Of a DNA stretch of 64,000 nucleotides, positions 18,390-60,659 are shown piece after piece. The first letter of the stretch is position 1, and every line of letters begins with the position of its first letter. The stretch spans positions 1-64,000 of the forward strand of contig JAHHIM010000020.1 of the NCBI GenBank assembly GCA_019358915.1. Direction: 5' to 3'. Source of the stretch: Trichormus sp. ATA11-4-KO1. Lineage in GTDB: Bacteria; Cyanobacteriota; Cyanobacteriia; Cyanobacteriales; Nostocaceae. The translations under genes were made by a program, and so were the position numbers. Below the pieces are notes generated by a model. That model made no database searches. It saw nothing but the letters and a program-made list of their open reading frames with translations, and was not told the origin of the DNA.

Positions 18390-18430
18390 GTTTTTGACAT
18401 TTGTAAAACTTTTTATATGGAAGTCAAAAC

Positions 18431-19612: not shown

Positions 19613-19616
19613 AAAC

Positions 19617-20687
19617 ATGGTTAGTATTAAAGGTGAAGTTTTCAATCATCAACAAGCTGCGAAAACTTCTATTAAATGTGTAGTTTGGGATTTAGATAAC
19701 ACAGTCTGGGATGGCGTGTTGTTGGAAGATGACTGCGTTTCTTTACGAAATCAGGCAGTTGAGATTATCAAAACCTTGGATAGTCGCGGCATTTTACAAT
19801 CTATTGCCAGTAAAAATGATGCTGCCAAAGCAATGGCTAAACTCCAAGAGTTTGAATTACATGAATATTTTCTCTATCCCCAAATTAACTGGAATTCCAA
19901 ATCTAGTTCTATTCAGGAAATATCTCAGTCTCTTAATCTAGGAATTGATGCATTTGCCTTTATAGATGACCAATTATTTGAATTAGAAGAAGTTAACTTT
20001 TCATTACCTGAAGTGCTATGTATTGATGCAGCGAAATTAACAAATTTACTAGATATGCCAGAAATGAATCCTCGTTTTATTACGGAAGATTCAAAACAAA
20101 GGCGATTAATGTATATTAGTGATATAGTTAGAAATAATTCCGAAAAAAGTTTTGTTGGTACTCAAGAGGAATTTTTAGCTACACTCAATATGACTTTTAC
20201 AATCTCTTCTGCCCAGGAAGATGATTTACAAAGAGCCGAAGAATTAACAGTCAGAACCAATCAATTGAATACAACAGGTCATACGTATTCCTATGATGAA
20301 CTAAATTATTTTCGGCAATCAGATCAGCATAAATTGTTAATTGCCAGTTTGGAGGATAAGTACGGTAGCTACGGCAAAATTGGATTAGTTCTTGTGGAAT
20401 GCCAAGAGTTGGTATGGACTATAAAACTTTTGCTAATGTCTTGTCGTGTGATGTCTAGAGGTATCGGCACAATTATGCTGAACTATATGATGGCATTGGC
20501 TAAAAATAACAATGTTCGTCTGCGTTCTGAGTTCGTTGCTAACGATCGCAATAGAATGATGTATGTGTCTTACAAGTTTGCTGGATTCCAGGAAATCGCC
20601 AAGCACGGAGATTTGCAAATTTTAGAAAATGACCTCACACGCATTCAACCCTTTCCCGAATATGTAAACGTCAAAATTCTCAATTAG
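19617..20687 (+). CDS. FkbH-like HAD-IIIC glyceryl transferase/phosphatase
   Basis: WDLDNT (DxDxT), RTNQLN, LMSCRVMSRG. ATG 19617 is preferred over the TTG at 19536, which overlaps the upstream gene. Confidence 0.9.
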   Translation: MVSIKGEVFNHQQAAKTSIKCVVWDLDNTVWDGVLLEDDCVSLRNQAVEIIKTLDSRGILQSIASKNDAAKAMAKLQEFELHEYFLYPQINWNSKSSSIQEISQSLNLGIDAFAFIDDQLFELEEVNFSLPEVLCIDAAKLTNLLDMPEMNPRFITEDSKQRRLMYISDIVRNNSEKSFVGTQEEFLATLNMTFTISSAQEDDLQRAEELTVRTNQLNTTGHTYSYDELNYFRQSDQHKLLIASLEDKYGSYGKIGLVLVECQELVWTIKLLLMSCRVMSRGIGTIMLNYMMALAKNNNVRLRSEFVANDRNRMMYVSYKFAGFQEIAKHGDLQILENDLTRIQPFPEYVNVKILN

Positions 20688-35715: not shown

Positions 35716-38700
35716 CAAACACTCACGATAATACTATTCATGGACTTTCCTCACAAACAAAACGTGAGCTTTTAGCAAAATTGCTGCAAGAAAAAGTGGG
35801 GAAGCCTCAAATTTTCCCCATGTCTTTTGCTCAACAAAGAATTTGGTTTATAGACCAATTACAGCCTGGAAATTTTGCTAATCATATATGGGCAGCTTTG
35901 CATATTCAGGGTTGCTTAAATCAAGTTTCATTATTACAAACTCTGAACGAAATCGTGCATCGCCATGAGGTTTTGCGAACTACTTTCGCAACTATATCAG
36001 AACAACCTGTTCAGGTGATTATTCCTAATTTAAACTTGGATTTACCAATTATCAATCTGGAAAATCTATCTAAGATTGAGCAAGGAACTGAAGTTAAAAA
36101 GTTAGTTAGACAAGAAATAGAAAAACCCTTCAATTTGAGCCAACCTCCATTACTGCGAGCTACTTTGCTGCGTCTAGGTGAGATAGAACATATTGTAGTG
36201 TTTACAATGCACCACATTATCTCTGATGGTTGGTCAATGGGAGTGCTAATTCAAGAAGTCGCAGCACTTTATGAAGCCTTCTCAAAAGGACAACCCTCAC
36301 CCTTAGCAGAATTGCCAATTCAATACGTAGACTTCGCTGCTTGGCAACGACAATGGCTACAACAAGAAGTATTAAAATCACAAATATCTTATTGGAAAAA
36401 ACAGTTAGAGGGCGTACCCAAATTATTGGAATTACCCACTAACTACCCAAGACCAGCAATTCAAACTTTCCGGGGTGCAACCTATTCATTTAAGTTATCT
36501 GATGAATTATCTATAGCCTTAAATAAGTTAAGCCAGCAGCATGGAATTACCTTATTTATGACCCTGTTGGCAGCTTGGCAAACACTGCTATGGCATTATA
36601 CGGGTAATGAAGATATTGTAGTTGGGTCGCCCATTGCTAATCGCAACCGATCTGAACTAGAAGGATTAATTGGATTTTTTGCCAATACAATTGTACTGAG
36701 AACTAATTTGGCAGGTAATCCCAGGTTTACAGAGCTACTCAAACGGGTGCAGGAAGTAGCATTGGGAGCTTATGCTCACCAAGACTTGCCTTTTGAGTTG
36801 TTAGTTGAAGAACTACAGCCACAGCGAGACTTAAGTCATACACCGCTATTTCAAGTGATGTTTGTGCTTCAGAATGCTCCCATGTCTGCGTTAGAGTTAC
36901 CTGGTTTAACTATTAGTCCGTTAAATTTTGATAATGGCACGGCCAAGTTTGATTTGACTCTAGACATGACAGAAACCGAACAGGGACTATTTGGCACTTT
37001 AGAATACGATACTGATTTGTTTACGGAAACTTCCATAAAAAGAATGGCGGGTCATTTGCAAACTTTGCTAGCAGGAATTGTAACTAATCCACAGCAGCGT
37101 CTTGCAGAATCATCACTGCTCACAGAATCTGAAAAACATCAATTACTTGTAGAGTGGAACAATACAAAAATTGAGTATTCTCAGTGTCAATGTATTCATC
37201 AATTGTTTGAGGCGCAAGTAGAACGGAAACCTGATGCTATAGCTGTAGTATTTGCAGACCAACAGTTAACCTATCAGGAACTCAACAACAGAGCCAATCA
37301 ACTAGCACATTATTTGCAACTACTGGGAGTGCAACCAGAGGTCTTGGTAGGAATTTGTGTAGAGCGATCGCTTGATATGATCATTGGCATATTAGCTATC
37401 CTCAAGGCTGGTGGTGCATACATCCCACTAGACCCTAATTATCCCCAAGAACGATTAGCATTCATCCTCGAAGATACCCACGTGTCGGTGGTGTTGACTC
37501 AAGCCTCGCTGTTGACAAAAATACCCCAACACCAAGCACAAGTCATTTGTTTAGATGCTGATTGGCAAACAAATACCCAACAAAGCCAAGAAAATTTATT
37601 CTCCCAACTCACTCCTGATAACTTGGCTTATGTTATCTATACCTCTGGTTCCACAGGTAAGCCCAAGGGTGTGCAAATTACCCACAAGGCTTTGAGCAAC
37701 TTTCTGTTGGCGATGAAACAAACCCCTGGAATCACCGCAGAAGACATCTTACTCGCAGTCACGACCTATTCTTTTGATATTGCAGCATTAGAATTATTTT
37801 TACCAATCATCATCGGCGCGCGCTCAGTCATTGTTAGCCGGGAAATAGCCGTAGATGGAATACAGTTGTCAGCAAAACTAATTGACTCAAAAGCTACAGT
37901 TATGCAAGCCACACCAGCTACTTGGCAGTTACTTTTAACAGCAGGTTGGAGTGGTAATCGTCAATTAAAAATTCTTTGTGGTGGCGAAGCTTTACCCGTA
38001 CATTTAGCTCATCAATTACGTCAACAATGTGCTTCTTTGTGGAATATGTACGGCCCTACCGAAACCACAATTTGGTCAGCAGCATCAGAGGTCAAAACTG
38101 ATAGCGAAGTTGTATCCATTAGTCAGCCAATTGCCAATACGCAATTATATATCTTAGACCAATATAACCAGTTAGTTCCTGTAGGTGTAGCAGGCGAATT
38201 ACATATAGGCGGGGATGGATTGGCGCGTGGGTATTTCCTCCGTCCTGATATTACAGCAGAAAAATTTATTCCTCATCCCTACGCTAAAAACATAGGAGAA
38301 AGGTTATACAAAACTGGAGATTTAGCCCGTTATCTGCCGAATGGAGAGATAGAGTACATTGGTCGGATTGACTATCAAGTAAAAGTACGTGGTTTTCGGA
38401 TTGAACTAGGCGAAATTGAAGCTGTCATCAATCAATATCCCGCAGTTCGAGAAACCATAGTCACAGTACGAGAAGATGAAGTAGATTCTCAGAGTTTAGT
38501 AGCTTATGTAGTTCCTCAAGTTCAGCAAAGATTGGTAACTACAGAATTGCGAAGATTCTTAGAGTCAAAGTTGCCTAGTTACATGATACCGGGGGCTGTT
38601 GTCATGCTGGAGGCGCTGCCACTCACGCCTAATGGTAAAGTTGACCGCAAAGCTTTACCTGCTCCTGATTTGACATTGTTATCATCAGTTAATCTGCTGA

Positions 38701-40397
38701 CTGCGACTACACCGATTGAGAATTTATTAACGGGTATTTGGGCGGAAGTACTTGGTATTAATCAAATAGGTGTTGAGCAAAATTTCTTTGAATTGGGAGG
38801 ACACTCTTTAATTGCGACTCGCGTTATTTCCCAAATTCGCCAAGTGTTTCAAGTAGAGTTACCTTTAAGTTATTTGTTTGCAAAACCAACTATTGCTGGA
38901 CTAGCAAAAGAAATTGAAAAAGCGATTCAGGCAAACTCAGGAGTTGAACAGACGAATATTGAGCGAGTTGAGCGATCGCCACAATTACCGCTATCATTTG
39001 CTCAACAAAGACTGTGGTTTCTCGACCAGTTGGAACCAAACAACAGTGCCTATAACATTTTCCACGCTGTAAGGATTCAGGGTTCGCTCAACATTGTTGC
39101 ACTCAAGCAGAGTTTCCAGGAAATTGTGCAGCGTCATGAAGCTTTGCGAACCAGCTTTCAAACTATAGATGGTCAACCAATACAGGTTATTGCTCCCATC
39201 CTAAATCTGTCCATCCCCGTCATAGATTTAAGTGAATGCTCTTTATTAGAACAAGAACTAGAGATCCATCAGTTAGCCACACAAGAGGCGCAACAACCTT
39301 TTGACTTAACCCAATGCCCTTTACTCAGGGTGACTCTAGTGCAATTGCACGCACAAGAATACATCATCCTGCTGACAATACACCACATTGTCTCAGATGC
39401 CTGGTCAATGGGGATATTAGTTGAGGAATTAGCAGCGCTGTACCCCGTCTTTTGCACTGGTAAGCCTTTGCAACTTGCGGAATTACCTATCCAGTATGCA
39501 GATTTTGCAGTTTGGCAGCGCCAATGGTTCCAAAAAGATGTATTACAAACCCAGCTTGCTTATTGGAAACAACAACTAGGTAGTACATGTCCCCGATTAG
39601 CATTGCCTAAACCATCTTTGCGTGCAACTGTTGAAACTAACCAAGGTGCAAAGCAATCATTTACATTGTCTCCAGAGATAAGTGAGGCGATTAATCTGCT
39701 AAGTCGTGAAAAAGGGGTAACTTTATTCATGACATTGCTAGCAGCTTTCCAAGTGTTGCTTTATTGTTTTACAGGTACTCAAGATATCCGAATTGGTTCA
39801 CCCATCGCCAACCGCAACCGAGTGGAGATTGAAAAACTGATTGGATTCTTTGTCAATACCTTGGTGCTACGTATCGACTTATCTGGTAATCCTAGTTTCT
39901 CAGAATTATTGGTGCGATCGCGTCAAGTTACCTTAGAAGCCTATGCACATCAATACTTGCCTTTTGAAAAACTCGTAGAAGAACTACAACCACAAAGAAA
40001 TTTAAATCATCATCCATTGTATCAAGCATGGTTTGTCCTCCAAAATACTCCCATGCCGCCGTTAGAACTACCAAATTTAACCCTCACTTCATTTGAGGTT
40101 GACAGCAATCCAGTGCGACATGATTTACTTTTAGAAATTTGGCCAAGTCCAGAAGGTCTTAAAGGCAGGTTTGAGTATAAAACTGACTTATTTGACAAGG
40201 CTAGTATTTCTCGATTGATTAAATATTTAAACACACTTCTAAGCCATGTTGTTGCACATCCAAATACAACGCTCAATGAACTAGCAACAATGATTGCTCA
40301 AATTGATAGAGAACAACAGAAACTGCAAAAACAAGAACTTCAAGCCACAGAACATCAGAAATTAAAGATGATTAAACGAAAAACTATCCGCAATTAA
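35712..40397 (+). CDS. NRPS: C-A(Gly)-PCP-C
   Basis: C1 HHIISDG; code DILQLGMIWK (Gly); PCP GGHSL; terminal LCL-type C HHIVSDA. Confidence 0.92.
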   Translation: MTNTHDNTIHGLSSQTKRELLAKLLQEKVGKPQIFPMSFAQQRIWFIDQLQPGNFANHIWAALHIQGCLNQVSLLQTLNEIVHRHEVLRTTFATISEQPVQVIIPNLNLDLPIINLENLSKIEQGTEVKKLVRQEIEKPFNLSQPPLLRATLLRLGEIEHIVVFTMHHIISDGWSMGVLIQEVAALYEAFSKGQPSPLAELPIQYVDFAAWQRQWLQQEVLKSQISYWKKQLEGVPKLLELPTNYPRPAIQTFRGATYSFKLSDELSIALNKLSQQHGITLFMTLLAAWQTLLWHYTGNEDIVVGSPIANRNRSELEGLIGFFANTIVLRTNLAGNPRFTELLKRVQEVALGAYAHQDLPFELLVEELQPQRDLSHTPLFQVMFVLQNAPMSALELPGLTISPLNFDNGTAKFDLTLDMTETEQGLFGTLEYDTDLFTETSIKRMAGHLQTLLAGIVTNPQQRLAESSLLTESEKHQLLVEWNNTKIEYSQCQCIHQLFEAQVERKPDAIAVVFADQQLTYQELNNRANQLAHYLQLLGVQPEVLVGICVERSLDMIIGILAILKAGGAYIPLDPNYPQERLAFILEDTHVSVVLTQASLLTKIPQHQAQVICLDADWQTNTQQSQENLFSQLTPDNLAYVIYTSGSTGKPKGVQITHKALSNFLLAMKQTPGITAEDILLAVTTYSFDIAALELFLPIIIGARSVIVSREIAVDGIQLSAKLIDSKATVMQATPATWQLLLTAGWSGNRQLKILCGGEALPVHLAHQLRQQCASLWNMYGPTETTIWSAASEVKTDSEVVSISQPIANTQLYILDQYNQLVPVGVAGELHIGGDGLARGYFLRPDITAEKFIPHPYAKNIGERLYKTGDLARYLPNGEIEYIGRIDYQVKVRGFRIELGEIEAVINQYPAVRETIVTVREDEVDSQSLVAYVVPQVQQRLVTTELRRFLESKLPSYMIPGAVVMLEALPLTPNGKVDRKALPAPDLTLLSSVNLLTATTPIENLLTGIWAEVLGINQIGVEQNFFELGGHSLIATRVISQIRQVFQVELPLSYLFAKPTIAGLAKEIEKAIQANSGVEQTNIERVERSPQLPLSFAQQRLWFLDQLEPNNSAYNIFHAVRIQGSLNIVALKQSFQEIVQRHEALRTSFQTIDGQPIQVIAPILNLSIPVIDLSECSLLEQELEIHQLATQEAQQPFDLTQCPLLRVTLVQLHAQEYIILLTIHHIVSDAWSMGILVEELAALYPVFCTGKPLQLAELPIQYADFAVWQRQWFQKDVLQTQLAYWKQQLGSTCPRLALPKPSLRATVETNQGAKQSFTLSPEISEAINLLSREKGVTLFMTLLAAFQVLLYCFTGTQDIRIGSPIANRNRVEIEKLIGFFVNTLVLRIDLSGNPSFSELLVRSRQVTLEAYAHQYLPFEKLVEELQPQRNLNHHPLYQAWFVLQNTPMPPLELPNLTLTSFEVDSNPVRHDLLLEIWPSPEGLKGRFEYKTDLFDKASISRLIKYLNTLLSHVVAHPNTTLNELATMIAQIDREQQKLQKQELQATEHQKLKMIKRKTIRN

Positions 40398-40412
40398 ATC
40401 AGAAAATTAACA

Positions 40413-41471
40413 ATGACAAATACCAGTTTTAATAAAAAAATCAAAAAATTGGGGATTATCAATCGTAAATCTGTCAGTGTATCCCCAGACGAATTAATCA
40501 AAATCTCGTATTTGCAACCCAAAACCTCTCTTCCTTTAATTGTGCAACCAAATGTAGAATCCTTAAATCTGATAGTTTGGACTCAGCATAATCGCCCTTG
40601 GATTGAAAAGAATTTATTGCAACATGGAGGCATACTTTTTCGAGATTTTAACGTCAAAAATATAACTGAATTTGAGCAATTTATGCAAGCAATTTCAGGA
40701 AACTTGCTGCAATATTCTTATCGTTCTACGCCACGTACTCAGGTCAGTGAAAATATTTATACTTCTACTGAATATCCGGCAACTCATTTCATTCCTTTAC
40801 ATAATGAAATGTCTTACTCTCGTACTTGGCCGATGAAAATTGCCTTTTTTTGTATTAATAAAGCGCCACAAGGAGGAGAAACGCCAATTGCAGATAGTCG
40901 CCGGATTTTTGCTCGTTTAGATACAAAAATTAAAGAAAAGTTCCTGCAAAAACAAGTAATGTATGTGCGAAACTATGGAATAGGATTAGATTTATCCTGG
41001 CAGAATGTCTTTAATACTAATAACAAATCTGAAGTAGAAGCATATTGCCAGAAAATAGGAATTGAATTAGAGTGGAAAGATAGTGATACTTCCGGTATCA
41101 GCTTAAAAACTCGTCAAATCTGTCAAGCCGTTGCCAAGCATCCCCAGACATCCGAAATAGTTTGGTTTAATCAAGCTCATTTATTCCATGTATCTAATCT
41201 AGAACCAACTATTCGCGCACAGCTTTTGGCTGATTTCTCAGAAGAAAATTTACCTCGCAATAGTTATTACGGTGATGGTTCTGCCATTGAGACTTCGATA
41301 TTAGAAGAAATTCGAGAAATTTATCAGCAAGAAGCAATTATTTTTCCTTGGCAAGCAGGAGATATATTGCTACTGGATAATATGCTGGCTGCACATGGTA
41401 GGATGCCATTTCAAGGCTCACGTAAGGTTGTAGTCGGGATGGCTGAAGAATACAATTGTCAGGAAGTTTAG
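40413..41471 (+). CDS. Stand-alone TauD/SyrP-like Fe(II)/2OG dioxygenase (putative aspartyl beta-hydroxylase)
   Basis: YTSTEYP, PLHNEMSY (HxE), GGETPIAD, WFNQAHLFH, DNMLAAHGR. Directly precedes an Asp module. Confidence 0.88.
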   Translation: MTNTSFNKKIKKLGIINRKSVSVSPDELIKISYLQPKTSLPLIVQPNVESLNLIVWTQHNRPWIEKNLLQHGGILFRDFNVKNITEFEQFMQAISGNLLQYSYRSTPRTQVSENIYTSTEYPATHFIPLHNEMSYSRTWPMKIAFFCINKAPQGGETPIADSRRIFARLDTKIKEKFLQKQVMYVRNYGIGLDLSWQNVFNTNNKSEVEAYCQKIGIELEWKDSDTSGISLKTRQICQAVAKHPQTSEIVWFNQAHLFHVSNLEPTIRAQLLADFSEENLPRNSYYGDGSAIETSILEEIREIYQQEAIIFPWQAGDILLLDNMLAAHGRMPFQGSRKVVVGMAEEYNCQEV

Positions 41472-41486
41472 TGCAAAAAACAGGTT

Positions 41487-44400
41487 TTGAATATGCAAAA
41501 ACAACAAATTTCAGGATTTAGATTATCTCCCCAACAAAAGCATTTATGGTTATTACAACAAAATGATTTAACTGCACCATATCGCGTCCAGTGTGCAGTT
41601 CTAATCACCGAAAAATTGAAGACTGATGTGTTAAAAACAGCATTACAAAATGTTGTTAATCAATATGAGATTCTGCGGACTACTTTTTCTTTCCTTCCCG
41701 GAATGGAAATACCATTACAAGTGATAGTTGATAATTATAATATTTCTCTGACTGAATTTAATTTCACTGATTTGTCCTGGCAAGAGCAAGAAAGTAAAAT
41801 TGAGTCACTATTGACTGAAATAAAAACAGTACATTTTAATTTAGAAAATAATCCACCATTCCAAGCATACATTGTCAGTTTATCCTCAGAAAAATATATA
41901 CTAATATTAAATTTATCTGCATTAATCGCAGATAGCTCAACTCTCAAATATTTGATAAATAAAATTAGTACTTCATACTCAGCCTGCTTACAAGGTCAAG
42001 ATATTAGTAATGAACCAATACAATATGCAGATATTGCTGAATGGCAAAACGAACTTCTAGATTCAGAAGAGTCAGAGCTAGGGAAAGAGTATTGGCGCAA
42101 ACAAGATATTACTTCTATTGATAATTTGCATCTTTGGTTTGAAAATCAACAAATTGAAACTTCAGAATTTCAGCCTCAATGTATTTCTTTAACTATCAAT
42201 AATGATTTAGTAAAACAAATAGAATCATTAACTCATATATATAATGTCAATAAATGTGATTTTCTGCTAGCTTGTTGGCTAATAATGCTTTGGAAAATCA
42301 CCAGACAGCCAGATATGTTTATTGGTGTTGCTAGTGATGGGAGAAAATATGAAGAATTAGACCAAGCTTTAGGACTGTTAACTAAGTATTTACCACTTTG
42401 TTTTCATTTAGAAGCAGAATTTAAATTTAGTGAAATATTAAAACAAGTAACTGAGTCTGCAAATAACGCCTACGAATGGCAAGAATATTTTACCTGGGAG
42501 GAAACATTTAAATCAGAAGCTTTTTGTCCATTTAGTTTTGAATTTGCAGAAAATTATTCTGTTGCAGACCTATCATTTTCTCTATATAAACAGTATTCTT
42601 GTATCGATAAATTTAAAATTAATTTAATTTGCATTGACAAAAGTGATAGTTTAATTACTGAATTACATTTTGATGCAAATTTGTATAATACTCAAGATAT
42701 CCAAACTTTATCAGAACAGTTCAAAACTTTATTAGAAGATGCAATTGCCAATCCTGAAGCTACCATTAGTCAGCTAAATATTCTCAGCGATCGCACATTA
42801 CAAAAAATTCTCGTTGAGTTCAACAATACAACTGTCGATTATCCCTCAAATAAGTGCCTACATCAGCTATTTGAAGAACAAGTAGCACGCACACCAGAGC
42901 AAATAGCTGTTATCTTTGAGCAACAACAACTAACTTATACACAGTTAAATGCACGAGCTAATCAACTAGCTCATTACTTGCGCCAGCACGGAGTAGGATC
43001 TGAAGTAGTGGTTGCACTGTATATGGAGCGATCGCTAGAATTAATTATCGGATTATTAGCTATTCTCAAAGCTGGTGGAGCTTATATTCCCCTAGATCCA
43101 GCGTATCCCCAAGAGCGTTTAGCCTGGATGCTGGCAGATGCCAAAGTACCAATATTATTAACTCAACAGCAGCTAGTCAAAACCCTCCCCGAACATTCAG
43201 CACAGGTAATATGCTGGGATCAGGAAGAGGATGCGATCGCTCACCAGAGCCAGGAAAATCCTCATAGCAGCGTGAATCCTGAAAATTTGGTCTATGTATT
43301 GTTCACATCTGGCTCTACTGGCAAACCCAAAGGAGTTGCAGTTGAGCATCGACAACTGAGTAACTACCTCAACGCGATCGTTCAAACGCTAGACTTATCT
43401 GGATGTAACAGCTTTGCTCACATTTCTACCTTTGCAGCTGATTTAGGCAACACCATTATCTTTCCTTCCCTTTGTACAGGCGGATGTCTGCACATAGTTT
43501 CCTCAGAACGGATTTCCAACCCAGAAGCACTAGCAGACTATTTTCACCAACACCCCATCGATTGCCTTAAGATTGTTCCTGCTCACCTGGCAGCTCTAAT
43601 GACAGCTTCTCAACCAGAAAAAATCTTACCTCGACAACGCCTGATTTTAGGTGGTGAGGCTTGTAATTGGCAGTTAATTGAGCAAATTCAGCAATTAACT
43701 ACTGAGTGCCGCATTTTTAACCACTACGGCCCCACGGAAACTACTGTCGGTGTACTAACCTACCCCATTGAGCCAGGAAAAACCCCACTTAACTCTAATA
43801 CAGTTCCCATTGGGCGACCAATTCCTAATACGCAAATCTATATATTAGACTCTTGCTTACAACCAGTACCCATAGGAGTGCCTGGTGAGTTACACATTGG
43901 TGGTGCAAGTGTAACTAGAGGCTACCTCAATCATCCCGACTTAACAAATCAAAAGTTTATTACCAATCCTTTCATAAAAACAGGATGTCTCTACAAAACC
44001 GGAGATTTAGCTCGCTACTTACCAGATGGAAACATTGAGTTTCTCGGCAGAATTGACCAGCAAGTTAAAATTCGCGGTTACCGTATTGAGTTAGGAGAGA
44101 TTGAGATAGTACTCAAACAACACCCATCGATGCGGGAGGCTGTGGTTATCTGCCATGAAGAACAAACAGGTAACAAGCGGCTAATTGCTTATGTAGTAGT
44201 AAAAACACAATCTGCCCTAAATAATACCCATCTGCGCGAATTTTTGCAGGAAAAGCTACCCCAGTATATGCTGCCGTCGGTATTCATGCAGTTGCAGGCT
44301 TTACCGTTATTGCCCAATGGCAAAATAAACCGCCAAGCTTTACCAGTACCCGATACCAGCAAGGCAGAGTTTGCTGTCGCACCTCGTACCCAGGTTGAAG

Positions 44401-44753
44401 AAGTGTTAGCTGGAATTTGGGCAGATATTCTAGAACTACCGCAAGTTGGTATCTATGACAACTTCTTTGAGGTAGGTGGAGATTCGATTCTCAGCATTCG
44501 CATTGTTGCTAAAGCCAATCAAGCGGGTTTACAACTTACCCCCAAGCAGATGTTTGAATATCAGACAATTGCCGAACTCGCAGCCGTGGTGCAGGTAAAT
44601 CAAGAGAAGCAACTGGAAGAGGAAATTCCGTTGACACCCCCTCAACCTCCGTCTCACAACAGCGCAAGTTATACACCCTCCGACTTTCCGCAAGCAAATT
44701 TAAACCAAAAAGATTTAGATAATTTTCTGACAAAACTCAATCAAAAAAAATGA
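41487..44753 (+). CDS. NRPS: interface-like degenerate C-A(Asp)-PCP with E-domain remnant and COM tail
   Basis: N-terminal GFRLSPQQ; active-site region LSALIAD; code DLTKIGHVGK (Asp); PCP GGDSI; ends IPLTPPQ...YTPSDFP. Start may be ATG 41493. Confidence 0.88.
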   Translation: MNMQKQQISGFRLSPQQKHLWLLQQNDLTAPYRVQCAVLITEKLKTDVLKTALQNVVNQYEILRTTFSFLPGMEIPLQVIVDNYNISLTEFNFTDLSWQEQESKIESLLTEIKTVHFNLENNPPFQAYIVSLSSEKYILILNLSALIADSSTLKYLINKISTSYSACLQGQDISNEPIQYADIAEWQNELLDSEESELGKEYWRKQDITSIDNLHLWFENQQIETSEFQPQCISLTINNDLVKQIESLTHIYNVNKCDFLLACWLIMLWKITRQPDMFIGVASDGRKYEELDQALGLLTKYLPLCFHLEAEFKFSEILKQVTESANNAYEWQEYFTWEETFKSEAFCPFSFEFAENYSVADLSFSLYKQYSCIDKFKINLICIDKSDSLITELHFDANLYNTQDIQTLSEQFKTLLEDAIANPEATISQLNILSDRTLQKILVEFNNTTVDYPSNKCLHQLFEEQVARTPEQIAVIFEQQQLTYTQLNARANQLAHYLRQHGVGSEVVVALYMERSLELIIGLLAILKAGGAYIPLDPAYPQERLAWMLADAKVPILLTQQQLVKTLPEHSAQVICWDQEEDAIAHQSQENPHSSVNPENLVYVLFTSGSTGKPKGVAVEHRQLSNYLNAIVQTLDLSGCNSFAHISTFAADLGNTIIFPSLCTGGCLHIVSSERISNPEALADYFHQHPIDCLKIVPAHLAALMTASQPEKILPRQRLILGGEACNWQLIEQIQQLTTECRIFNHYGPTETTVGVLTYPIEPGKTPLNSNTVPIGRPIPNTQIYILDSCLQPVPIGVPGELHIGGASVTRGYLNHPDLTNQKFITNPFIKTGCLYKTGDLARYLPDGNIEFLGRIDQQVKIRGYRIELGEIEIVLKQHPSMREAVVICHEEQTGNKRLIAYVVVKTQSALNNTHLREFLQEKLPQYMLPSVFMQLQALPLLPNGKINRQALPVPDTSKAEFAVAPRTQVEEVLAGIWADILELPQVGIYDNFFEVGGDSILSIRIVAKANQAGLQLTPKQMFEYQTIAELAAVVQVNQEKQLEEEIPLTPPQPPSHNSASYTPSDFPQANLNQKDLDNFLTKLNQKK

Positions 44754-46171
44754 AAACAGAAAACATCGAAGATATTTACGAACTGTCACCAATACAAAAA
44801 GGGATTCTGTTTCACAGCTTATTTGCTCCGGAATTGGGACTGTATTTTTTTCAGATGCCCTTTGTTTTGCGTGGTCATCTTAATGTTGCAGCTTTTGAGC
44901 AAGCTTGGCAAGAAGTAGCAGCTAGACACACAATCTTACGCACTGGTTTTTATTGGGAAGACATTAACAAACCACTACAAGTGGTGTATCGAGAAATCCA
45001 AATAACTCTAGATGAGCATGATTGGCGGGAAATAGATTCTAGTCAACAGCAACAGCAATTAAAGTCATTTCTGGAGAGCGATCGCCAGCGAGGCTTTGAT
45101 ATGTCTCAAGAATGTTTAATGCGTCTGAGTTTGTTCCGCCTCACAGATGATTGTTATCAATTTGTTTGGAGCCGACACTTTATCGTTTTAGATGGGTGGT
45201 CAGTACCTATAGTGCTGAATGAGGTAATTCAAATTTATGAAGGACTTTGTCAAGGTAAGCAAGTATCGTTAACACCCAGCATTCCCTATCGGCATTACAT
45301 CAACTGGTTGCAAAAGCAAAATATATCTGAAGCAGAGGTATTCTGGCGACAAGCATTGCATGGTTTAAAAACCCCTACTTCCTTACAAAAGTTAAATGCA
45401 AAAAATCTTTCTCCCCAGGAAGCAAAATATGAAGAACAACGCATCACTGTATCGACAGCAACCACAACAGCCCTACAGTTTCTAGCAAGACAGCATCAGC
45501 TGACGCTGAGTACACTTTTTCAGGGATTATGGGCTATTCTTTTGAGTCACTATAGTGGTGAAAAAAAAGTCCTTTATGGGTGTACTGTTGCTGGTCGTCC
45601 TATCGAACTAGTCAGAGAAGAACCACTTTTAGGATTATTTGTTAACAGCTTGCCTGTATGGGTGGACGTGGACGCTGAACAATTTCTGCTGGTGTGGCTG
45701 AAGCAACTTCAAAAACAAATAGTTGAAATGCGCCAGTATGAATGGACACCATTGGTAGAGATTCAAGGATGGAGTGAAATACCACGTAGCTTACCTTTAT
45801 TTGAGAGCATTTTAGTCTATGAAAACGCACCAGTAGAGAAAATTTTACAAGAAGGGCATAGTATTATAGATATCTCAAATTCATCTATATTCTCTGATTC
45901 AAGTACTTTTTATAAGACTAACTATCCTATCGCAATAGCTGTTTATCCAGGTTCCAGTTTTTGTATTGGCATTGATTATGATTTCCGCCGCTTCGACGCT
46001 GCAACAATTACTGGCATATTGCAGCATTTTGATATCTTACTCCAAAACATAATAAATCATCCTGAAGTGCGTATTCAGGAATTATCTTTGCTGACGGATC
46101 GAGAGCAAAACATCTCTGTGATGTTGGAAAAACAAATAATATTTAATTTTAATTTAACTGCGTGCAATTAG
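44750..46171 (+). CDS. Second stand-alone DCL-like condensation domain lacking the catalytic His
   Basis: ENIEDIYELSPIQKGILFH; WSRHFIVLDGWS. Paralogue of 25412-26809. Confidence 0.85.
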   Translation: MKTENIEDIYELSPIQKGILFHSLFAPELGLYFFQMPFVLRGHLNVAAFEQAWQEVAARHTILRTGFYWEDINKPLQVVYREIQITLDEHDWREIDSSQQQQQLKSFLESDRQRGFDMSQECLMRLSLFRLTDDCYQFVWSRHFIVLDGWSVPIVLNEVIQIYEGLCQGKQVSLTPSIPYRHYINWLQKQNISEAEVFWRQALHGLKTPTSLQKLNAKNLSPQEAKYEEQRITVSTATTTALQFLARQHQLTLSTLFQGLWAILLSHYSGEKKVLYGCTVAGRPIELVREEPLLGLFVNSLPVWVDVDAEQFLLVWLKQLQKQIVEMRQYEWTPLVEIQGWSEIPRSLPLFESILVYENAPVEKILQEGHSIIDISNSSIFSDSSTFYKTNYPIAIAVYPGSSFCIGIDYDFRRFDAATITGILQHFDILLQNIINHPEVRIQELSLLTDREQNISVMLEKQIIFNFNLTACN

Positions 46172-46251
46172 GAATATGAGGATAGTGGAATTTATTACCT
46201 CAATCTGATTAAGCTTATTTTAATACATCTTTCTTTTCCCAAACTTTAATC

Positions 46252-47142
46252 ATGATTACTTCATCTTCAATAATTGACAAACACTACAAACTTTCACATC
46301 AAGAATTTATTTCAAGTTATGTAAAGCCAGCAAAACCAGTCATCATTTCTGGATTAATTGAAAATTGGGATGCTTTTGGTAAATGGTCATTAGATTTTTT
46401 GCAAGAAAGTGCCCCAGAAATTAATATTTGTGCTAAGGAGTTTACTAACGGCACCATAAAAACTAACAATTTTACACTCAAAGAGTATACAAAAATCATT
46501 AAAGAATTTGAAATAAAAAACAAATATCATGAAAATGTTGCATCACCTCCTTATTGCCATGATATTCCTCTGTTTAGCTTAGTTCCTCATCTCATTAGAG
46601 ATGTTCAATTTCCCACAAATTATTTACCAAAATGGTATACAGAAAAATGGTGGCGCTATTGTCAATTTTTTATAGGAGCATCTAATAGCCTAACTCCATT
46701 ACATTTTGATTGTCTTTTAACAAATAATCTTTTTTTCCAAATTGTTGGACGCAAAAAATTTACTATACTCACATATGAGGACAAAAAATATTGTTATCGA
46801 TATGATTGGCGATGGTTTAAGGTCAATCCAGAGAATCCTGATTTTGATAAGTATCCAAAATATAAAAATGCTAGACCAATTGAAATTATTGTAAATCCTG
46901 GCGATATTTTATATATGCCTCCTGGTACTTTGCATCATGTAAGAAGTTTAGATATGTCAATTTCTTTTAATATTGATTGGCATACCAACAGCAGCGTAAT
47001 TAATAGTTTAACAGCTTGTTTAAAAGGGATGCCAATGCAAAACGTTTATTATAATTTTTTATTAACATTAGGCTTGGTTTTTCAAGTACCTCCTCAAATA
47101 ATTTTTAAATTTTACAAAACTTATCTAAATTATATTTCCTAA
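46252..47142 (+). CDS. JmjC/cupin_8-family Fe(II)/2OG oxygenase
   Basis: KPVIISGLIENW; TPLHFD (HxD); QIVGRKKF; PGDILYMPPGTLHHV. Confidence 0.85.
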   Translation: MITSSSIIDKHYKLSHQEFISSYVKPAKPVIISGLIENWDAFGKWSLDFLQESAPEINICAKEFTNGTIKTNNFTLKEYTKIIKEFEIKNKYHENVASPPYCHDIPLFSLVPHLIRDVQFPTNYLPKWYTEKWWRYCQFFIGASNSLTPLHFDCLLTNNLFFQIVGRKKFTILTYEDKKYCYRYDWRWFKVNPENPDFDKYPKYKNARPIEIIVNPGDILYMPPGTLHHVRSLDMSISFNIDWHTNSSVINSLTACLKGMPMQNVYYNFLLTLGLVFQVPPQIIFKFYKTYLNYIS

Positions 47143-47294
47143 TGTAAAACAGCTAAATTGTATATTTTAGTTGATATTAAAGCATATTGCGATCGCTAAA
47201 AATGAAATGAGTGTTCAAATATAAAATAGTTTTTTGATAATTATTTGACACGATAAATTGACCAAGATTACAATTCACATAAAAAAGGTAACAA

Positions 47295-50200
47295 ATGACA
47301 ATTAATCAGCAAATTCAAGATTTAATTACTCCTGAAGAGTTATTTTCACAAAAATTTTATTGGGTAAATCAGCTATCTGGAGAACTACCAGAATCAAATT
47401 TCATCACAGATTTCATTAGACCTGCAATTTATCGAGGAAAGAATAAGTCTGTTGAGTTTAATTTACCAGATAAATTATCAGCATCTCTGATTAAGTTTAC
47501 AAATCATTCTTATCTATCCATTTATTTATTGCTTGTCTCAGCGCTTGGTATATTGTTGCGAAAATATACTGGTAGTAATGATGTAATTATTGGTTCGCCA
47601 ACTTATCAGAATGCAGAAATTAACGAAAATACAAGTAATAAAATTTTACCTTTACGCTTGTATGTAGATAGTCAAGTTACCTTTAAAGATTTTCTGCTTC
47701 ATGTTAAAGAAAAAATGGTTAGCGCCTATAGCCATCAAGATTATAATTTTGATGAATTAGTTAGCTTATTGGAAATACCAAAAACACCAAACAGATGCCC
47801 AATTTTTGATATTGCAATTTTATTAGAAAACATTCACGAATATATTAACATAAATAATGATGTAACATTTGCTTTTAAAGTAACTGGAAACTCTATCCAA
47901 GGTCAGGTAAAATATGTCGATAGTCTTTTTCAAGAAACAACTATTAAGACTATTATTAAATATTACCTGAATATCCTGGAAGCTATTATTTCTGATTGTT
48001 ATACACAAATTGTCGATATTTCCTTCCTCAAAGCAGAAGATGAATATAAAATTCTATCAGCTTTTAACAATAATTTGCAAGCAGGATATCCCTTAAATCA
48101 GACTATCAACCAGTTATTTGAACAGCAGGTAGAGCAAACACCAAACCGCATAGCAGCAGTTTTTGGCAATCTTGAACTCACTTACCAAGAATTAAATCAA
48201 AAAGCCAATCAACTCGCTAGATTTTTACAGAATTTAGGAGTCAAACAAAGAGAATTCGTGGGAATTCTCAAAGAGCGAGATATTAATTTTCTTATCGGCA
48301 TACTTGCCATATATAAAGCTGGTGGAGCTTACGTACCAATTGATAGTACGTATCCCTCAGATAGAATCAAGTACATGGTATATAACAGCGAAGTGAAGAT
48401 TCTTTTAACAGATTCTTCTTGCTTAAATATACTCATAAATTTACAAAAAGATTGTCCGCACCTACAATTCCTAGTCTGTTCAGATATCAAACCTCAGGTA
48501 GCAAATTTCAATCAGTTAATAAATATTGACATATACGATCAAAGAGATTTTAAGAATTTACCACAAGAAAATTTAGAAATTATTAATGTAGCCAGCGATC
48601 CGGCATATATGCTCTATACTTCGGGGTCAACTGGTTTACCTAAGGGGGCAATTGTTAGGCATGATGGTGCAATCAATCATATTTATGCTCAGTTTGATGC
48701 TTTAGAGTTGAATGAAGATTTTTGTTTTCTCCAAAGCGCTGCTGCTTCTACAGATATTTCTGTCTGGCAATTTCTAGCACCGCTATTAATTGGTGGAAAA
48801 ACAGTCATAGTCGATATTGAAAGCGGTTTTGTACCTGAAAAGTTATTTAAAGTTCTTCAAGAACAAAGAATAACTGTTGTTGAATTAGTACCAGCAGTAT
48901 TTGGCGGATTAATAGACTATATTTCTCAATTATTACCTCACCAAAGATTGTTACTTGATTTGAAGTGGATGATGGTAGTAGGAGAACCAGTATCAGTTCA
49001 AAGGCTAAATCAATGGTTGAGGATTTATCCTTCCATCAAAGTAGCTGATGCTTACGGTCCAACTGAAGCTGCTGATGATATTACTCAGTACATTGTAGAA
49101 AAACCTTTACCAGAGAGCCAACGAACAGTTCCTATTGGTAAACCATTAGCAAACTTAAATATTTATATTCTTGACCCAAAACTCAACTTATTACCAATTG
49201 GAGTTCCTGGGGAAATTTGTGTTGCAGGAATTGGAGTGGGTAATGGTTACTGGAAAAATGAAGAAAAAACAAATTTAAGCTTTGTTGCCAATCCTTTTCC
49301 CCACACTACTAAATTATTACCAGAAACTTACCGAGATTTAATTTATAAAACCGGAGATTTAGGAAGATGGTTACCTGATGGGAATATTGAGTTTTTAGGA
49401 CGTATTGATCATCAAGTAAAAATTCGTGGCTTTCGTGTTGAACTGGGAGAAATAGAGGCTCTACTAGCAAAGCATCCAGCAATCAGGGAGGCTGTAGTTA
49501 TACTCAGGGAAGATATCCCTGGTGAAAAACGTTTGGTAGCTTATATGATTGTATCCAGCGACCAAATACCAACAAACGACCCAGCAGTTAGCAGTGAATT
49601 AATCCTAGAGCTACGCAATTCACTCAAAGAAAGATTGCCAGACTATATGATACCGTCAGCTTTCTTACTGCTGGAAGCATTTCCCCTGAGTCCTAGTGGC
49701 AAAATAGACCGTAAGGCATTACCAGTACCAGATTGGTCACAACGAAATTTAGCGCAGTCTTATATTGCACCCCGCACACCTACAGAGGAAATGATAGCTG
49801 GTATTTGGTCGCAGGTGCTTGGTGTTGAGCAAGTGGGTGTTGATGATAACTTTTTTGACCTGGGAGGACATTCCTTATTAGCAACTTTGGTTGTTTCCCA
49901 GTTGCGGAATGTATTCCACATAGAACTACCTTTGCGTAATATTTTTGACTTTCCCACAGTGGTAACCTTAGCAAAGTCTGTGGAGATAATGAAGCAGTCA
50001 CAGGAGCATCTCCAGTCACCGCCCATAGTACCCATCCCCCGGAATGGTAAGGAGCCACTGTCATTTGCACAACAACGGTTGTGGTTTATCGACCAGTTAG
50101 AACCAAACAACCCTGCCTATAACCACTTTAATGCTGTACGTATTACAGGTGCGCTCAACATAGTTGCATTAAAACAGAGCCTCAATGAAATTATCAGACG

Positions 50201-52421
50201 ACATGAAGCTTTGCGAACGAGTTTTCCGGCCGCAGATGGTCAACCAATTTGTGCGATCGCCCCAGCTTTGACCTTAGAACTACCTGTGGTAGAGTTGCAA
50301 GTATTGTCGGCAAATCAGCGAGAAGCAGAGGTGTTGCAGCTAGCTCAACAAGAAGCAGCACAACCGTTTGATTTAGCCCAGTCACCTTTGTTGCGAGCAA
50401 AATTGTTGAAGTTAGACGCAGCAGAGTATGTTTTACTCCTGACAATACACCATATTATTTTTGATGGCTGGTCTAGTGGGGTACTTAACCAAGAAATAGT
50501 CACACTTTACGAAGCTTTTTCTTCTGGAAAGCCTTCACCCTTGGCAGAACTTTCTATCCAATATGCTGATTTTGCTTACTGGCAGCGACAATGGTTGCAA
50601 GGTAAAACACTAGAAACCCAACTGTCCTACTGGCAAAAACAGTTAGCAGGTGCTTCTACAAGTTTGGATCTACACAAAATAGCCAGCAACTTCTCATCTA
50701 CTGTCAAAATAGAGGCTACAGAGGCATCCTTCTTACTTTCCCCTGAGCTATCCGAACAAATCAAAAAACTCAGCCGCCAAGAGGGAGTCACACTGTTTAT
50801 GACCCTACTGGCAATTTTTCAAATACTTTTATATCGCTACACAAATCAGGATGACATTATAGTTGGCACTGATGTCGCCAACCGCAATCGAGCCGAAATT
50901 GAACCACTAATCGGTTTCTTTGTCAACTTGCTGGTTTTACGCACCGACTTATCTGGCAACCCTAGTTTTCAAGAACTGCTAGGGCGGGTGCGTGAAGTCA
51001 CTTTGGGGGCTTATGCCCACCAAGACTTACCTTTTGCCAAGTTAGTAGAAGAATTACGTCCAGATAGAAATTCTAGTGCCACACCACTATTTCAGGTGTT
51101 ATTTGTTCTGCAAAATGTTCCTATGCCTACTGTAGAACTTTCAGACCTCACCCTCGCACCGATGGAGATTGATAACGGTCTAGCAAAGTTTGATTTAGCT
51201 TTATTTTTGGCAGAAACACCATCAGGAATTGTGGGGACTTGGAAGTATAATACCGATTTATTTAATGCTGCTACTATTACTCGCATCTCAGAGCATTTTG
51301 CCATTTTATTGCAGAGTATTGTTGCTCAACCTGATGCCAGAATTAACACTTTAGAAATGCTAACTGAAGTTGAAAAGAAACAACAAATGATGGAACAAGC
51401 AAAACAAGAACAAAGCAAACTGAAAAAGTTTATGCAGGTTAAGCCTAAGGCGATGAAGTTGCCACAGGGACAACTAATCACCACCGATTATCTACAGCCT
51501 GGTGAAACACTTCCCCTCGTGATTAAACCTGCTGTTGAGCAAATTGATCTGATTGACTGGGTGAAAAGTCACAAAGAATTAATTGAATCAAAATTGTTAT
51601 CTCATGGTGCTTTGCTGTTTAGAGGTTTTAATATTGATTCACCATCAGCATTTGAGAATTTAGCACAAGCTATTTGTCCACAGTTGTTTGGTGAGTATGG
51701 CGATTTACCACGCGAGGGAATAGGCGGGAAAGTTTACGGTTCTACCCCATATCCATCAGACCAAGCTATTTTATTTCACAACGAAAGTTCACATCTACAC
51801 TGCTGGCCTTTAAAAATTTGGTTTTTCTGCTTGCAAAGTCCTCAAGTTGGTGGCGAAACACCTATAGTGGATTGTCGCAAAGTATATCAGTTACTTGATC
51901 CGAAGTTGCGATCGCACTTTGAACAAAAGCAATTAATGTATGTTCGTAACTACATTCAAGGTTTGGATGTCAGCTGGCAAGAATTTTTCCATACAAGCGA
52001 TCGCACAGTAGTTAAAAAATACTGTCATCAAGCTAAGATTGATTTTGAGTGGAAGGAAGAGGATCATTTTTTGACTCGGCAAGTACGGCCTGCTATAACC
52101 AAGCATCCTCAAACTGGTGAGTTAATCTTTTTCAACCAAATTCAGCTGCATCATGTATCTTGCTTAGAACCAGCCGTCAAAGACTCTTTGTTATCAACTT
52201 TTGGCGCAGAAAAACTGCCCCGAAATGTTTATTATGGCGATGGTTCTCCTATTGAAGATGCTGTAGTCGAGGAAATTTGCTCAGTTTACGAGCAAGCCAA
52301 AGTGAGTTTTCCTTGGCAGCAAGGTGATGTGTTAATGCTGGATAATATGCTGACTGCACATGGTCGTAACCCTTATGTGGGGCCACGTAAAATTTTGGTG
52401 GCTATGGGTGAAATGCACTAA
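47295..52421 (+). CDS. NRPS: truncated C-A(Dab-like)-PCP-C-TauD (fused beta-hydroxylase)
   Basis: YWVNQLSGELP near the start; code DIWEMVADDK; PCP GGHSL; C HHIIFDG; C-terminal GSTPYP, LFHNESSH, DNMLTAHGR. Confidence 0.9.
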   Translation: MTINQQIQDLITPEELFSQKFYWVNQLSGELPESNFITDFIRPAIYRGKNKSVEFNLPDKLSASLIKFTNHSYLSIYLLLVSALGILLRKYTGSNDVIIGSPTYQNAEINENTSNKILPLRLYVDSQVTFKDFLLHVKEKMVSAYSHQDYNFDELVSLLEIPKTPNRCPIFDIAILLENIHEYININNDVTFAFKVTGNSIQGQVKYVDSLFQETTIKTIIKYYLNILEAIISDCYTQIVDISFLKAEDEYKILSAFNNNLQAGYPLNQTINQLFEQQVEQTPNRIAAVFGNLELTYQELNQKANQLARFLQNLGVKQREFVGILKERDINFLIGILAIYKAGGAYVPIDSTYPSDRIKYMVYNSEVKILLTDSSCLNILINLQKDCPHLQFLVCSDIKPQVANFNQLINIDIYDQRDFKNLPQENLEIINVASDPAYMLYTSGSTGLPKGAIVRHDGAINHIYAQFDALELNEDFCFLQSAAASTDISVWQFLAPLLIGGKTVIVDIESGFVPEKLFKVLQEQRITVVELVPAVFGGLIDYISQLLPHQRLLLDLKWMMVVGEPVSVQRLNQWLRIYPSIKVADAYGPTEAADDITQYIVEKPLPESQRTVPIGKPLANLNIYILDPKLNLLPIGVPGEICVAGIGVGNGYWKNEEKTNLSFVANPFPHTTKLLPETYRDLIYKTGDLGRWLPDGNIEFLGRIDHQVKIRGFRVELGEIEALLAKHPAIREAVVILREDIPGEKRLVAYMIVSSDQIPTNDPAVSSELILELRNSLKERLPDYMIPSAFLLLEAFPLSPSGKIDRKALPVPDWSQRNLAQSYIAPRTPTEEMIAGIWSQVLGVEQVGVDDNFFDLGGHSLLATLVVSQLRNVFHIELPLRNIFDFPTVVTLAKSVEIMKQSQEHLQSPPIVPIPRNGKEPLSFAQQRLWFIDQLEPNNPAYNHFNAVRITGALNIVALKQSLNEIIRRHEALRTSFPAADGQPICAIAPALTLELPVVELQVLSANQREAEVLQLAQQEAAQPFDLAQSPLLRAKLLKLDAAEYVLLLTIHHIIFDGWSSGVLNQEIVTLYEAFSSGKPSPLAELSIQYADFAYWQRQWLQGKTLETQLSYWQKQLAGASTSLDLHKIASNFSSTVKIEATEASFLLSPELSEQIKKLSRQEGVTLFMTLLAIFQILLYRYTNQDDIIVGTDVANRNRAEIEPLIGFFVNLLVLRTDLSGNPSFQELLGRVREVTLGAYAHQDLPFAKLVEELRPDRNSSATPLFQVLFVLQNVPMPTVELSDLTLAPMEIDNGLAKFDLALFLAETPSGIVGTWKYNTDLFNAATITRISEHFAILLQSIVAQPDARINTLEMLTEVEKKQQMMEQAKQEQSKLKKFMQVKPKAMKLPQGQLITTDYLQPGETLPLVIKPAVEQIDLIDWVKSHKELIESKLLSHGALLFRGFNIDSPSAFENLAQAICPQLFGEYGDLPREGIGGKVYGSTPYPSDQAILFHNESSHLHCWPLKIWFFCLQSPQVGGETPIVDCRKVYQLLDPKLRSHFEQKQLMYVRNYIQGLDVSWQEFFHTSDRTVVKKYCHQAKIDFEWKEEDHFLTRQVRPAITKHPQTGELIFFNQIQLHHVSCLEPAVKDSLLSTFGAEKLPRNVYYGDGSPIEDAVVEEICSVYEQAKVSFPWQQGDVLMLDNMLTAHGRNPYVGPRKILVAMGEMH

Positions 52422-58652: not shown

Positions 58653-58883
58653 ATGTATCAAGACGACAAAGAAGATACCACGATTTACAAAGTTGTAGTC
58701 AATCACGAAGAGCAGTATTCCATCTGGCCTGCTGAGCGAGAAAATGCACTCGGCTGGCGGGATGCAGGCAAAAGTGGACTGAAGGCAGAATGTCTTGAGT
58801 ACATCAAGCAAGTCTGGACTGATATGAGACCACTAAGTTTAAGGAAGAAGATGGAAGAAACCACCCGCAGTCAGACTCACTAA
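58653..58883 (+). CDS. mbtH: MbtH-like protein
   Basis: [40 protein letters not shown] upstream. Confidence 0.95.
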
Positions 58884-60654: not shown

Positions 60655-60659
60655 AATTT

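Follow-up and report, generated by a model that had tools for sequence, protein, structure and literature searches.

A predicted tail and half-C docking pair at split Dab modules of a cyanobacterial lipopeptide cluster, and a Dab-specific clade of condensation domains with a relaxed second histidine

How can an elongation module of a nonribosomal peptide synthetase (NRPS) operate when its condensation (C) domain is a separate protein without the canonical catalytic histidine, and its adenylation (A) domain lies on another protein behind half of a further C domain? This question is raised twice by a 64,000-nucleotide stretch of Trichormus sp. ATA11-4-KO1 (contig JAHHIM010000020.1, positions 1 to 64,000; hereafter the window), which, as read from its open reading frames (ORFs) and domains, holds one cluster of FAAL, polyketide synthase (PKS) and NRPS genes at the start of the contig. 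Two stand-alone C domains, C1 and C2, are each followed by one gene and then by a protein that begins with an isolated C-lobe (half-C), an A domain with a code for diaminobutyrate (Dab) and a peptidyl carrier protein (PCP). Based on co-occurrence and modelling, it is likely that each copy is a module split between C and A (a C|A junction), in which the C-terminal tail of the C domain docks on the half-C and the C domain still condenses; docking of such tails on half-Cs at C|A junctions, taken alone, is quite likely. The features of the two copies are as follows.

20715 to 25391, forward strand: donor subunit of C1, C-A-PCP-E with a TPSDF-type end (reading of domains and end)
25412 to 26809, forward strand: C1, stand-alone C with the motif NLIILDG, Tyr379 and an FDF tail at 26786 to 26794 (sequence reading)
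26809 to 28140, forward strand: diaminobutyrate-2-oxoglutarate transaminase for Dab supply (TIGR00709, 460 bits, cut-off 401.6)
28187 to 30955, forward strand: half-C 1, A (code DIWEMSADD) and PCP (Pfam, code reading)
41487 to 44753, forward strand: donor subunit of C2, with an interface-like C, A (code which we take to be Asp-type), PCP, no E and a TPSDF-type end, presumably COM-like
44750 to 46171, forward strand: C2, stand-alone DCL-derived C of the Dab-specific split clade (Pfam Condensation 7-453, tree)
45176 to 45196, forward strand: active-site motif HFIVLDG of C2, with Phe144 at the second His
45911 to 45913, forward strand: Tyr388 of C2, the clade signature at the position of the D-donor gate Glu of DCL domains (alignment)
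46088 to 46168, forward strand: predicted C-terminal docking tail of C2, residues 447-473, a helix followed by IIFNF (complex model, co-occurrence)
46252 to 47142, forward strand: JmjC (Cupin_8) oxygenase, candidate Dab hydroxylase (Pfam; HxD...H present; tracks the Val code)
47295 to 48080, forward strand: half-C 2, an isolated LCL-type C-lobe with a short latch and without the floor-loop Arg; predicted tail receptor
48090 to 49994, forward strand: A (code DIWEMVADD, Dab or hydroxy-Dab) and PCP of copy 2
50055 to 52421, forward strand: remainder of the copy 2 half-C ORF, a C with an intact HHIIFDG and a fused TauD hydroxylase, with which the protein ends

The first-pass annotation of this sequence had described a second stand-alone C domain in which the catalytic His is replaced by Phe, and this is what is found: C2 is an intact domain of 473 aa (motif region WSRHFIVLDGWSV) that has His143 and carries Phe144 in place of the catalytic second His. 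In C1, which has 465 aa (motif region WSHNLIILDGWSY), both motif His residues are replaced (Asn142, Leu143). C1 and C2 share 48.0% identity over 471 aa; for the half-Cs, whose similar starts had also been pointed out, the figure is 47.4% over 249 aa. No other C-type domain in the genome exceeds 28% identity with C1, C2 or the half-Cs, so that the number of copies is exactly two; the identity of C1 and C2 with the cluster's own interface-like domains (SALIADS, PSLCADS) is 20-22%. One gene does separate the C domain from half-C-A(Dab)-PCP in both copies. It had been taken for a tailoring gene, which holds for the JmjC gene of copy 2 and not for copy 1, where it encodes the Dab-supplying aminotransferase. 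The start of the half-C protein in copy 1 is probably 28187 or 28190, downstream of an AGGAG, rather than 28118. Both C domains share the two-lobed fold and descent of DCL domains such as McyB C1 (8hlk), TycB, SrfA-C and GrsB1 (model, structure matches and tree), from which they differ in having an extra tail and no A domain on the same protein. The model of C2 has a pLDDT (predicted local distance difference test) of 81.8, and its best PDB match is McyB C1. The HHxxxDG of DCL domains is present in neither, and the DxxxxD motif of Cy domains was not found in either sequence.

The similar FxF ends of the two stand-alone C proteins read as first described, and tails of this kind recur in related loci (numbered L). 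All 33 half-C ORFs in these loci are preceded by a protein ending in C, which either stands alone or follows PCP, ACP or E in a fusion; fusion to the end of the upstream subunit is seen in L038, L040, L042, L051, L052 and L119. A strict FxF within the last 14 residues occurs in 20 of the 31 distinct C ends that precede a half-C and in none of 190 other subunit ends (0/32 C ends before TauD or interface subunits, which have basic tails, 0/103 PCP ends and 0/55 E ends). A broader tail pattern, picked after the data had been seen, covers 29/31 of these C ends and also 5/55 E ends. The conserved tail residues, in C2 numbering, are Leu459 (29/31) and Phe465 (25/31). In addition, among 150 long NRPS representatives the FxF tail is present on 30 of the 68 proteins that end in a whole C versus 0 of the 82 others; this search was dominated by long multimodular proteins, so that the family is sampled unevenly. 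Helper enzymes with the same tail were not seen among the 24 aminotransferase ends listed. The 5 complete JmjC ends have an F-x-F in common, placed some 10 residues before the C-terminus.

Two other kinds of C end were noticed. Lys/Arg-rich tails mark C ends before TauD or interface subunits in the loci examined and form a second kind of junction. Subunits of L077, L082, L100, L105 and L076 carry a different conserved tail (SFN or GFN, then A/V/I-D/Y-L-E/D) behind a terminal DCL-type C that is His-intact; in four loci the next protein is a short A-PCP lacking a half-C, which may be another type of C|A junction.

The complex of C2 with half-C 2 was modelled from paired alignments of 31 loci in three runs, with three controls. 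The score was 0.82 in the three runs and 0.00 in the best control; the runs share at least 90% of their contacts, with a pLDDT of at least 83 for the partners. The mark used for this score is reached by 116/157 solved and 2/215 mismatched pairs, counts that are only approximate for our own alignments. On C2, the modelled interface comprises residues 447-471 (the tail helix and IIFNF) and the helix 416-426, with no residue of the N-lobe, and on half-C 2 it comprises residues 12-28, 67-78, 131-147 and 232-236. It differs from the contact between the N-lobe and C-lobe of a whole C domain, and searches of PDB structures turned up no similar complex. The end of the tail is of low confidence when C2 is modelled alone. 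At the modelled tail site, the half-C-specific basic residues Lys20, Lys67 and Lys131 suit acidic tails; Lys20 and Lys131, which face the tail, are Lys or Arg in 44/54 and 49/54 half-Cs, whereas Glu and Leu are commonest at 20, and Leu (15/70) and Arg (13) at 131, in whole C-lobes. By alignment, the site is the start of the helix that borders the donor entry in whole C domains, for which Asn256 of GrsB1 is the reference (PMC10949931; statements on published work refer throughout to the accessible parts of the cited papers), so that the tail seems to reuse a vacated donor-side surface. Together with the co-occurrence, the model supports binding of the tail to the half-C, as the first-pass annotation had suggested. 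Lobe complementation, in which the N-lobe of the C domain and the half-C would build a new active site, was rejected because the modelled interface holds no N-lobe residues and the floor-loop and latch features are lost from the half-C.

The half-C itself was compared with whole C-lobes. The Pfam Condensation match of half-C 1 covers profile positions 189-456 only, and half-C 2 modelled alone is a C-lobe (pLDDT 86.4) with LCL C-lobes as its top structure matches. A profile search of 401 genomes of the phylum was bimodal, with 12 matches below 1e-100 in 11 genomes and whole C-lobes from 1e-59; the upstream tailed C is present in all 11 genomes. For the tree, 67 candidates were reduced to 54 by removing 5 near-duplicates and 8 that were weak matches or probably fragments, and these were set against 70 of 772 whole C-lobes. 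All 54 half-Cs group together with a support of 0.915. Their latch spans 19-24 residues (22) versus 34-41 (35) in whole lobes, and the floor-loop Arg, present in 70/70 whole lobes, is lost from them. By these sequence features, the half-C is a distinct non-catalytic domain family and no chance truncation. That the half-C arose by recent truncation of the intact LCL-A(Dab) modules nearby is not supported, as the lobes of these modules group with whole C domains. The A code is of the DIW type in all of the 120 closest half-C proteins listed (one of them partly read), and distant half-Cs from Acidobacteria (L069, L091, L095, L097) precede Asn-type and other codes. A metagenome scan with one half-C matched only the window's own contig. 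In L055 (10057-10779), the half-C is a separate 240-aa ORF ahead of the A domain, through either a frameshift or a true split.

The pair of tail and half-C is also found with ordinary His-intact LCL or DCL domains and with non-Dab A domains, so docking would be independent of both the loss of His and Dab. The half-Cs of the long NRPS representatives serve many A codes. In genome G380, a 3487-aa protein has a His-intact C with FNF at its end (L128 1206-11669) and a 2787-aa protein has a half-C at its start (L124 8659-17022); we take these to be McyE-like and McyA-like, with the hand-over order this implies, and a neighbouring gene matches the PDB entry of McyB at its N-terminus. In this assembly, the D-E-G and A-B-C gene blocks point towards each other. 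A Paenibacillus polymyxa protein consists of half-C-A-PCP-E, three more modules and a C with an FAF end, presumably polymyxin PmxA, and half-C-A-PCP-TE proteins of 1083 and 1091 aa fit PmxB. The half-C start is shared by the PmxA-like and PmxB-like Paenibacillus proteins (P0342, P0404 and P0405), and the FAF end belongs to the PmxA-like type. On plasmid pREB1 of Acaryochloris marina (L133 17227-29243), a C that keeps HH, a Dab aminotransferase and half-C-A(Dab) are present.

Several points weigh against the docked split module. Strict FxF is absent from 11/31 of the split-module C ends, the tails are degenerate in L050, L115 and L119, and the pREB1 C has no FxF at all. The loci are related and not independent of each other, the representative proteins come without the genomic context of their partners, and the names and order of McyE and McyA are our assumption. 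The grouping of all half-Cs may be long-branch attraction. Finally, the second His is present in 72/73 fused DCL domains; losing it is uncommon and could point to altered chemistry.

Isolated C-lobes before A domains are known from module 1 of ACV synthetase (ACVS; C*) and from fungal Lys2/NPS3 (ADA), where their function has been called elusive (PMC7884236). Like these, the half-C is a C-lobe of about 250 aa N-terminal to A, without an N-lobe or HHxxxDG. C* and ADA belong to initiation modules or stand-alone aminoadipate enzymes, whereas the half-C belongs to an elongation subunit with a Dab-type code whose C is on another protein; TIGR03443 matches the half-C protein from residue 23, but this match comes from the A domain and stays far short of the cut-off. 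In the accessible text of PMC7884236 on C* and ADA, the word 'docking' does not occur. Stand-alone modules of the ramoplanin type, too, require an N-terminal extension that is unexplained (PMC8949500). COM, PAX and short linear motif (SLiM)/beta-hairpin pairs resemble the tail and half-C in being terminal elements that order subunits, and in the SLiM pair a short C-terminal peptide likewise meets a larger folded N-terminal domain (PMC9113145), an arrangement seen for our pair in the complex model only. These pairs act at E/C (as COM does) or PCP/C junctions, whereas the tail and half-C would act at C|A, with a whole 260-aa C-lobe as receptor instead of a small beta-hairpin. The classes described in the accessible part of that review include none for C|A junctions, the tomaymycin adaptor (PMC11186497) differs in recruiting a carrier protein, and the accessible part of PMC3640908 does not mention the N-terminal domain of McyA. 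Neither the docking pair nor a Dab C clade lacking His was found to be described in the accessible literature, mostly without subscription papers. Isolated C-lobes are thus known, and what is apparently uncharacterised is their docking role, together with the His-relaxed, Dab-specific C clade. The hand-over from C-ending to A-starting subunits concerns McyE/McyA-like, PmxA-like and many large uncharacterised synthetases; the tail of about 25 residues with its defined receptor could give engineers a natural C|A connector, and docking, if true, would assign a job to isolated C-lobes such as that of ACV synthetase.

The first-pass annotation had further read the loss of the second His as part of a conserved device, and had held that orthologous clusters retaining HHxxxDG would speak against it. 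That the loss is the conserved core is rejected. In a set of 121 sequences, namely C1 and the best 120 of 479 homologues, taken without genomic context, the second His position is H in 70, F in 38, M in 9, Q in 2, L in 1 and V in 1; in the 28 non-identical split Dab modules seen in genomic context (the distant L069 excluded), it is H in 11, F in 12, L in 4 and M in 1. Like clusters hold a His-bearing or a His-less C in the same slot (L115 and L037 against L108 and L112), so that relatives of the window copies in part retain the residue. From 116 non-redundant DCL-type domains, 78 were placed in a tree, the 22 non-Asp fused ones among them being drawn at random. There, all split Dab C domains form a single clade (support 1.0), whose neighbours are DCL domains located after beta-hydroxy-Asp modules. 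At least two losses of His fall within this clade, and C1 and C2 sit in two separate His-less branches, which suggests that the window copies lost it independently. Because His is kept in many members and lost at least twice, the site is, on this phylogeny, relaxed in the Dab clade and not obligately changed. The His state follows no strict pattern with the acceptor code across the loci; with respect to donors, 7/7 polyketide-donor cases keep His, and beta-hydroxy-Asp donors are paired with 13 Phe and 2 His. A shifted histidine as catalyst was rejected, as the C1 orthologue in L117 (82% identical) has no His in the motif. Several C domains remain active without the second His (PMC10510592). 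The natural loss is nevertheless unusual, since a large survey found HHxxxD to be nearly always present outside Cy domains (PMC10212144). With domains that have or lack His in one slot, the clade is a natural series and a ready test of the role of the 'catalytic' His.

The remainder of the active site is far more constant. Asp148, Gly149 and Arg283 are invariant (121/121), Tyr388 is found in 120/121 homologues and as Tyr in both window copies, and Tyr276 and Cys278 are further fixed changes of the clade. Tyr388 aligns with the Glu of McyB FEETNY and, from motif and spacing, would occupy the position of GrsB1 Glu386, which has been shown to gate D donors (PMC10949931). At this position, mapped in the same way, Tyr is present in 28/28 split Dab C domains versus Glu in 51/73 fused DCL domains, and the Glu/Asp of DCL domains is thus missing. 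An E domain precedes the split Dab C in 17/28 cases, including C1, and is missing in 11/28, including C2, which fits the replacement of the gate Glu by Tyr. The donor subunit of C2 has a TPSDF-type end like that of the E-bearing subunit 20715-25391; as its counterparts in the related clusters L108-L112 have E, this domain looks cleanly deleted.

With regard to the acceptor, both A codes match the PvdL Dab module in 7/9 positions and belong to the double-Asp diamino-acid pocket type. This PvdL module activates L-Dab (PMC9569983), and the double-Asp pocket has been described for SulM A3 (PMC12042044). Dab is therefore the best substrate call, since the A codes agree with the Dab aminotransferase in the cluster. 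The JmjC gene adjoins 5/7 Val-coded Dab modules versus 0/21 Thr/Ser-coded ones (one locus counted twice); the other two Val genomes have a JmjC orthologue of 65-66% identity, which is found in 0/3 Thr/Ser genomes tested. This pairing of JmjC and Val code was noted in the window (46252-47142 and 48090-49724) and in L032, L033, L036, L039, L050 and L063. For laxaphycin clusters, enzymes of the Cupin-8 type have been proposed to hydroxylate amino acids (PMC7524897), and, as JmjC tracks the Val code, copy 2 likely incorporates hydroxy-Dab.

Taken together, each copy would be one elongation module divided at the border of C and A, where a supply or tailoring gene is inserted. The separate C protein, the sole complete C between the donor and acceptor carriers by domain order, would receive the chain from the upstream subunit through the TPSDF-type end of the donor, presumably a COM-type contact on the donor side of each C, and join it to Dab on the PCP of the next subunit. 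The dead C-lobe downstream may preserve the platform of C-lobe and A and steady the A domain, as suggested by C* of ACV synthetase and ADA of Lys2, and would serve as receptor for the helix-plus-FxF tail in a coupling general to C|A subunit junctions. In the Dab-accepting cyanobacterial clade, the second His would be dispensable and Tyr would replace the stereo gate Glu, so that donors of D or L configuration and polyketides could all be accepted by the clade; speculatively, the reaction may be helped by the free amine in the side chain of Dab. It is doubtful that an uncharacterised C|A docking class, microcystin- and polymyxin-type junctions included, and a new His-independent Dab C subtype with Dab assistance or cyclic amidine formation and JmjC-made hydroxy-Dab all hold at once.

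The alternative that survives best keeps the docking but lets the clade go beyond an alpha-amide, with Tyr388 and its neighbours replacing His, for example by turning Dab into a cyclic amidine (a tetrahydropyrimidine, as in pyoverdine) or by acylating its side-chain amine. It is suggested by the monophyly of the clade, of which every context-verified member feeds a Dab-type A, by the fixed Tyr388, Tyr276 and Cys278 with the repeated loss of His, and by L038 (1863-6695) and L052 (1758-6608), where clusters with both ordinary LCL-A(Dab) and split Dab modules hint at different jobs. PvdL forms such a ring at its Dab module (PMC9569983). That module (9lco, 9lcp, 9lcq, 9up2) resembles the split modules in its DCL-type C before a Dab A of near-identical code, and its pathway also has a Dab aminotransferase. 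However, the PvdL C keeps both His (HHILIDA), is fused to A without a half-C and has Thr-His at 388-389 where the clade has Tyr-Lys; kinship with PvdL-type Dab C domains was not found in the tree, where a proteobacterial one (L090, as lineage stand-in) falls outside the clade. The absence of DxxxxD, the lack of active-site floor-loop and latch features in the half-C and a complex model without lobe exchange also speak against special chemistry, which is rather unlikely; a His-less C forming a plain amide is favoured.

It is quite improbable that the half-C merely helps its A domain structurally, like C* and ADA, and that the FxF tail binds elsewhere or is incidental. Deletion of C* or ADA abolishes substrate activation (PMC7884236), both sit in initiation modules without an upstream C, and FxF is missing from some split modules; a helper role can, moreover, coexist with docking. 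On the other hand, tail and half-C are found together in different phyla and with different C subtypes, none of the 190 other ends has the tail, and the model sets it on the half-C with all controls at zero.

That the His-less C domains are inactive adaptors or decaying genes, with another C condensing or the module skipped, is very improbable. The canonical catalytic residue is gone, C1 and its L117 orthologue lack both motif His, and such changes inactivate X domains (PMC8949500). Against this, the rest of the active site is invariant, the cluster has no spare C, His-bearing versions occupy the same slot, and the genes are under purifying selection. The ratio of nonsynonymous to synonymous substitution (dN/dS), which had been proposed as a check, is 0.28 for C1 and C2 with dS near saturation, 0.13-0.21 for eight His-less orthologue pairs, 0.18 for two His-bearing pairs and 0.13-0.33 for half-Cs, with 0.18 and 0.32 for two ordinary DCL controls and 0.13-0.33 over all 15 test pairs. 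I and X domains are inactive whole C domains fused in the module that they serve, where they recruit an oxygenase, and C1 and C2 do not have this layout. Decay is rejected by dN/dS, and the part of the first-pass reading that saw no decay holds, with the arrangement found in 11/401 genomes of the phylum.

The cluster as a whole starts with FAAL-ACP-C-A-PCP, two PKS subunits, a dehydrogenase/ACP/FkbH extender cassette and C-A-PCP-E. It continues with C1, the aminotransferase, half-C-A-PCP, a PKS, C-A-PCP-C, TauD and an interface-like C-A-PCP, and ends with C2, JmjC, half-C-A-PCP-C-TauD, an interface-like C-A-PCP-reductase, an aldo-keto reductase and an MbtH-like ORF; the labels interface, COM and MbtH are our assumption. 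The cassette (17227-20687) encodes a 3-hydroxyacyl-CoA dehydrogenase, a small ACP (18138-18389), an acyl-CoA dehydrogenase and FkbH, and presumably provides a hydroxymalonyl-type extender in this probable siderophore cluster. The C-TauD unit occurs split at 35712-41471, as a C with a basic tail followed by a stand-alone TauD, and fused at 50055-52421. The product is likely a beta-hydroxy-Asp lipopeptide siderophore, since two Asp-type modules with hydroxylases, the FAAL start and the reductase end match the layout of the cyanochelin B cluster, likewise a cyanobacterial FAAL-PKS-NRPS cluster with Asp beta-hydroxylases in fused and stand-alone form and a reductase at the end (PMC12628792); unlike for the window, neither Dab nor an aminotransferase is mentioned in the accessible text on cyanochelin B. 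No TonB receptor was found on the contig, which starts at window base 1. A second FAAL-NRPS locus of the same genome (L127 5894-10874) is broken into several frames. Behind the aldo-keto reductase lies the 76-aa MbtH-like ORF (58653-58883), and downstream of the cluster (59404-63532) a DUF4331 protein, a TPR protein and a NicO-like metal transporter are encoded.

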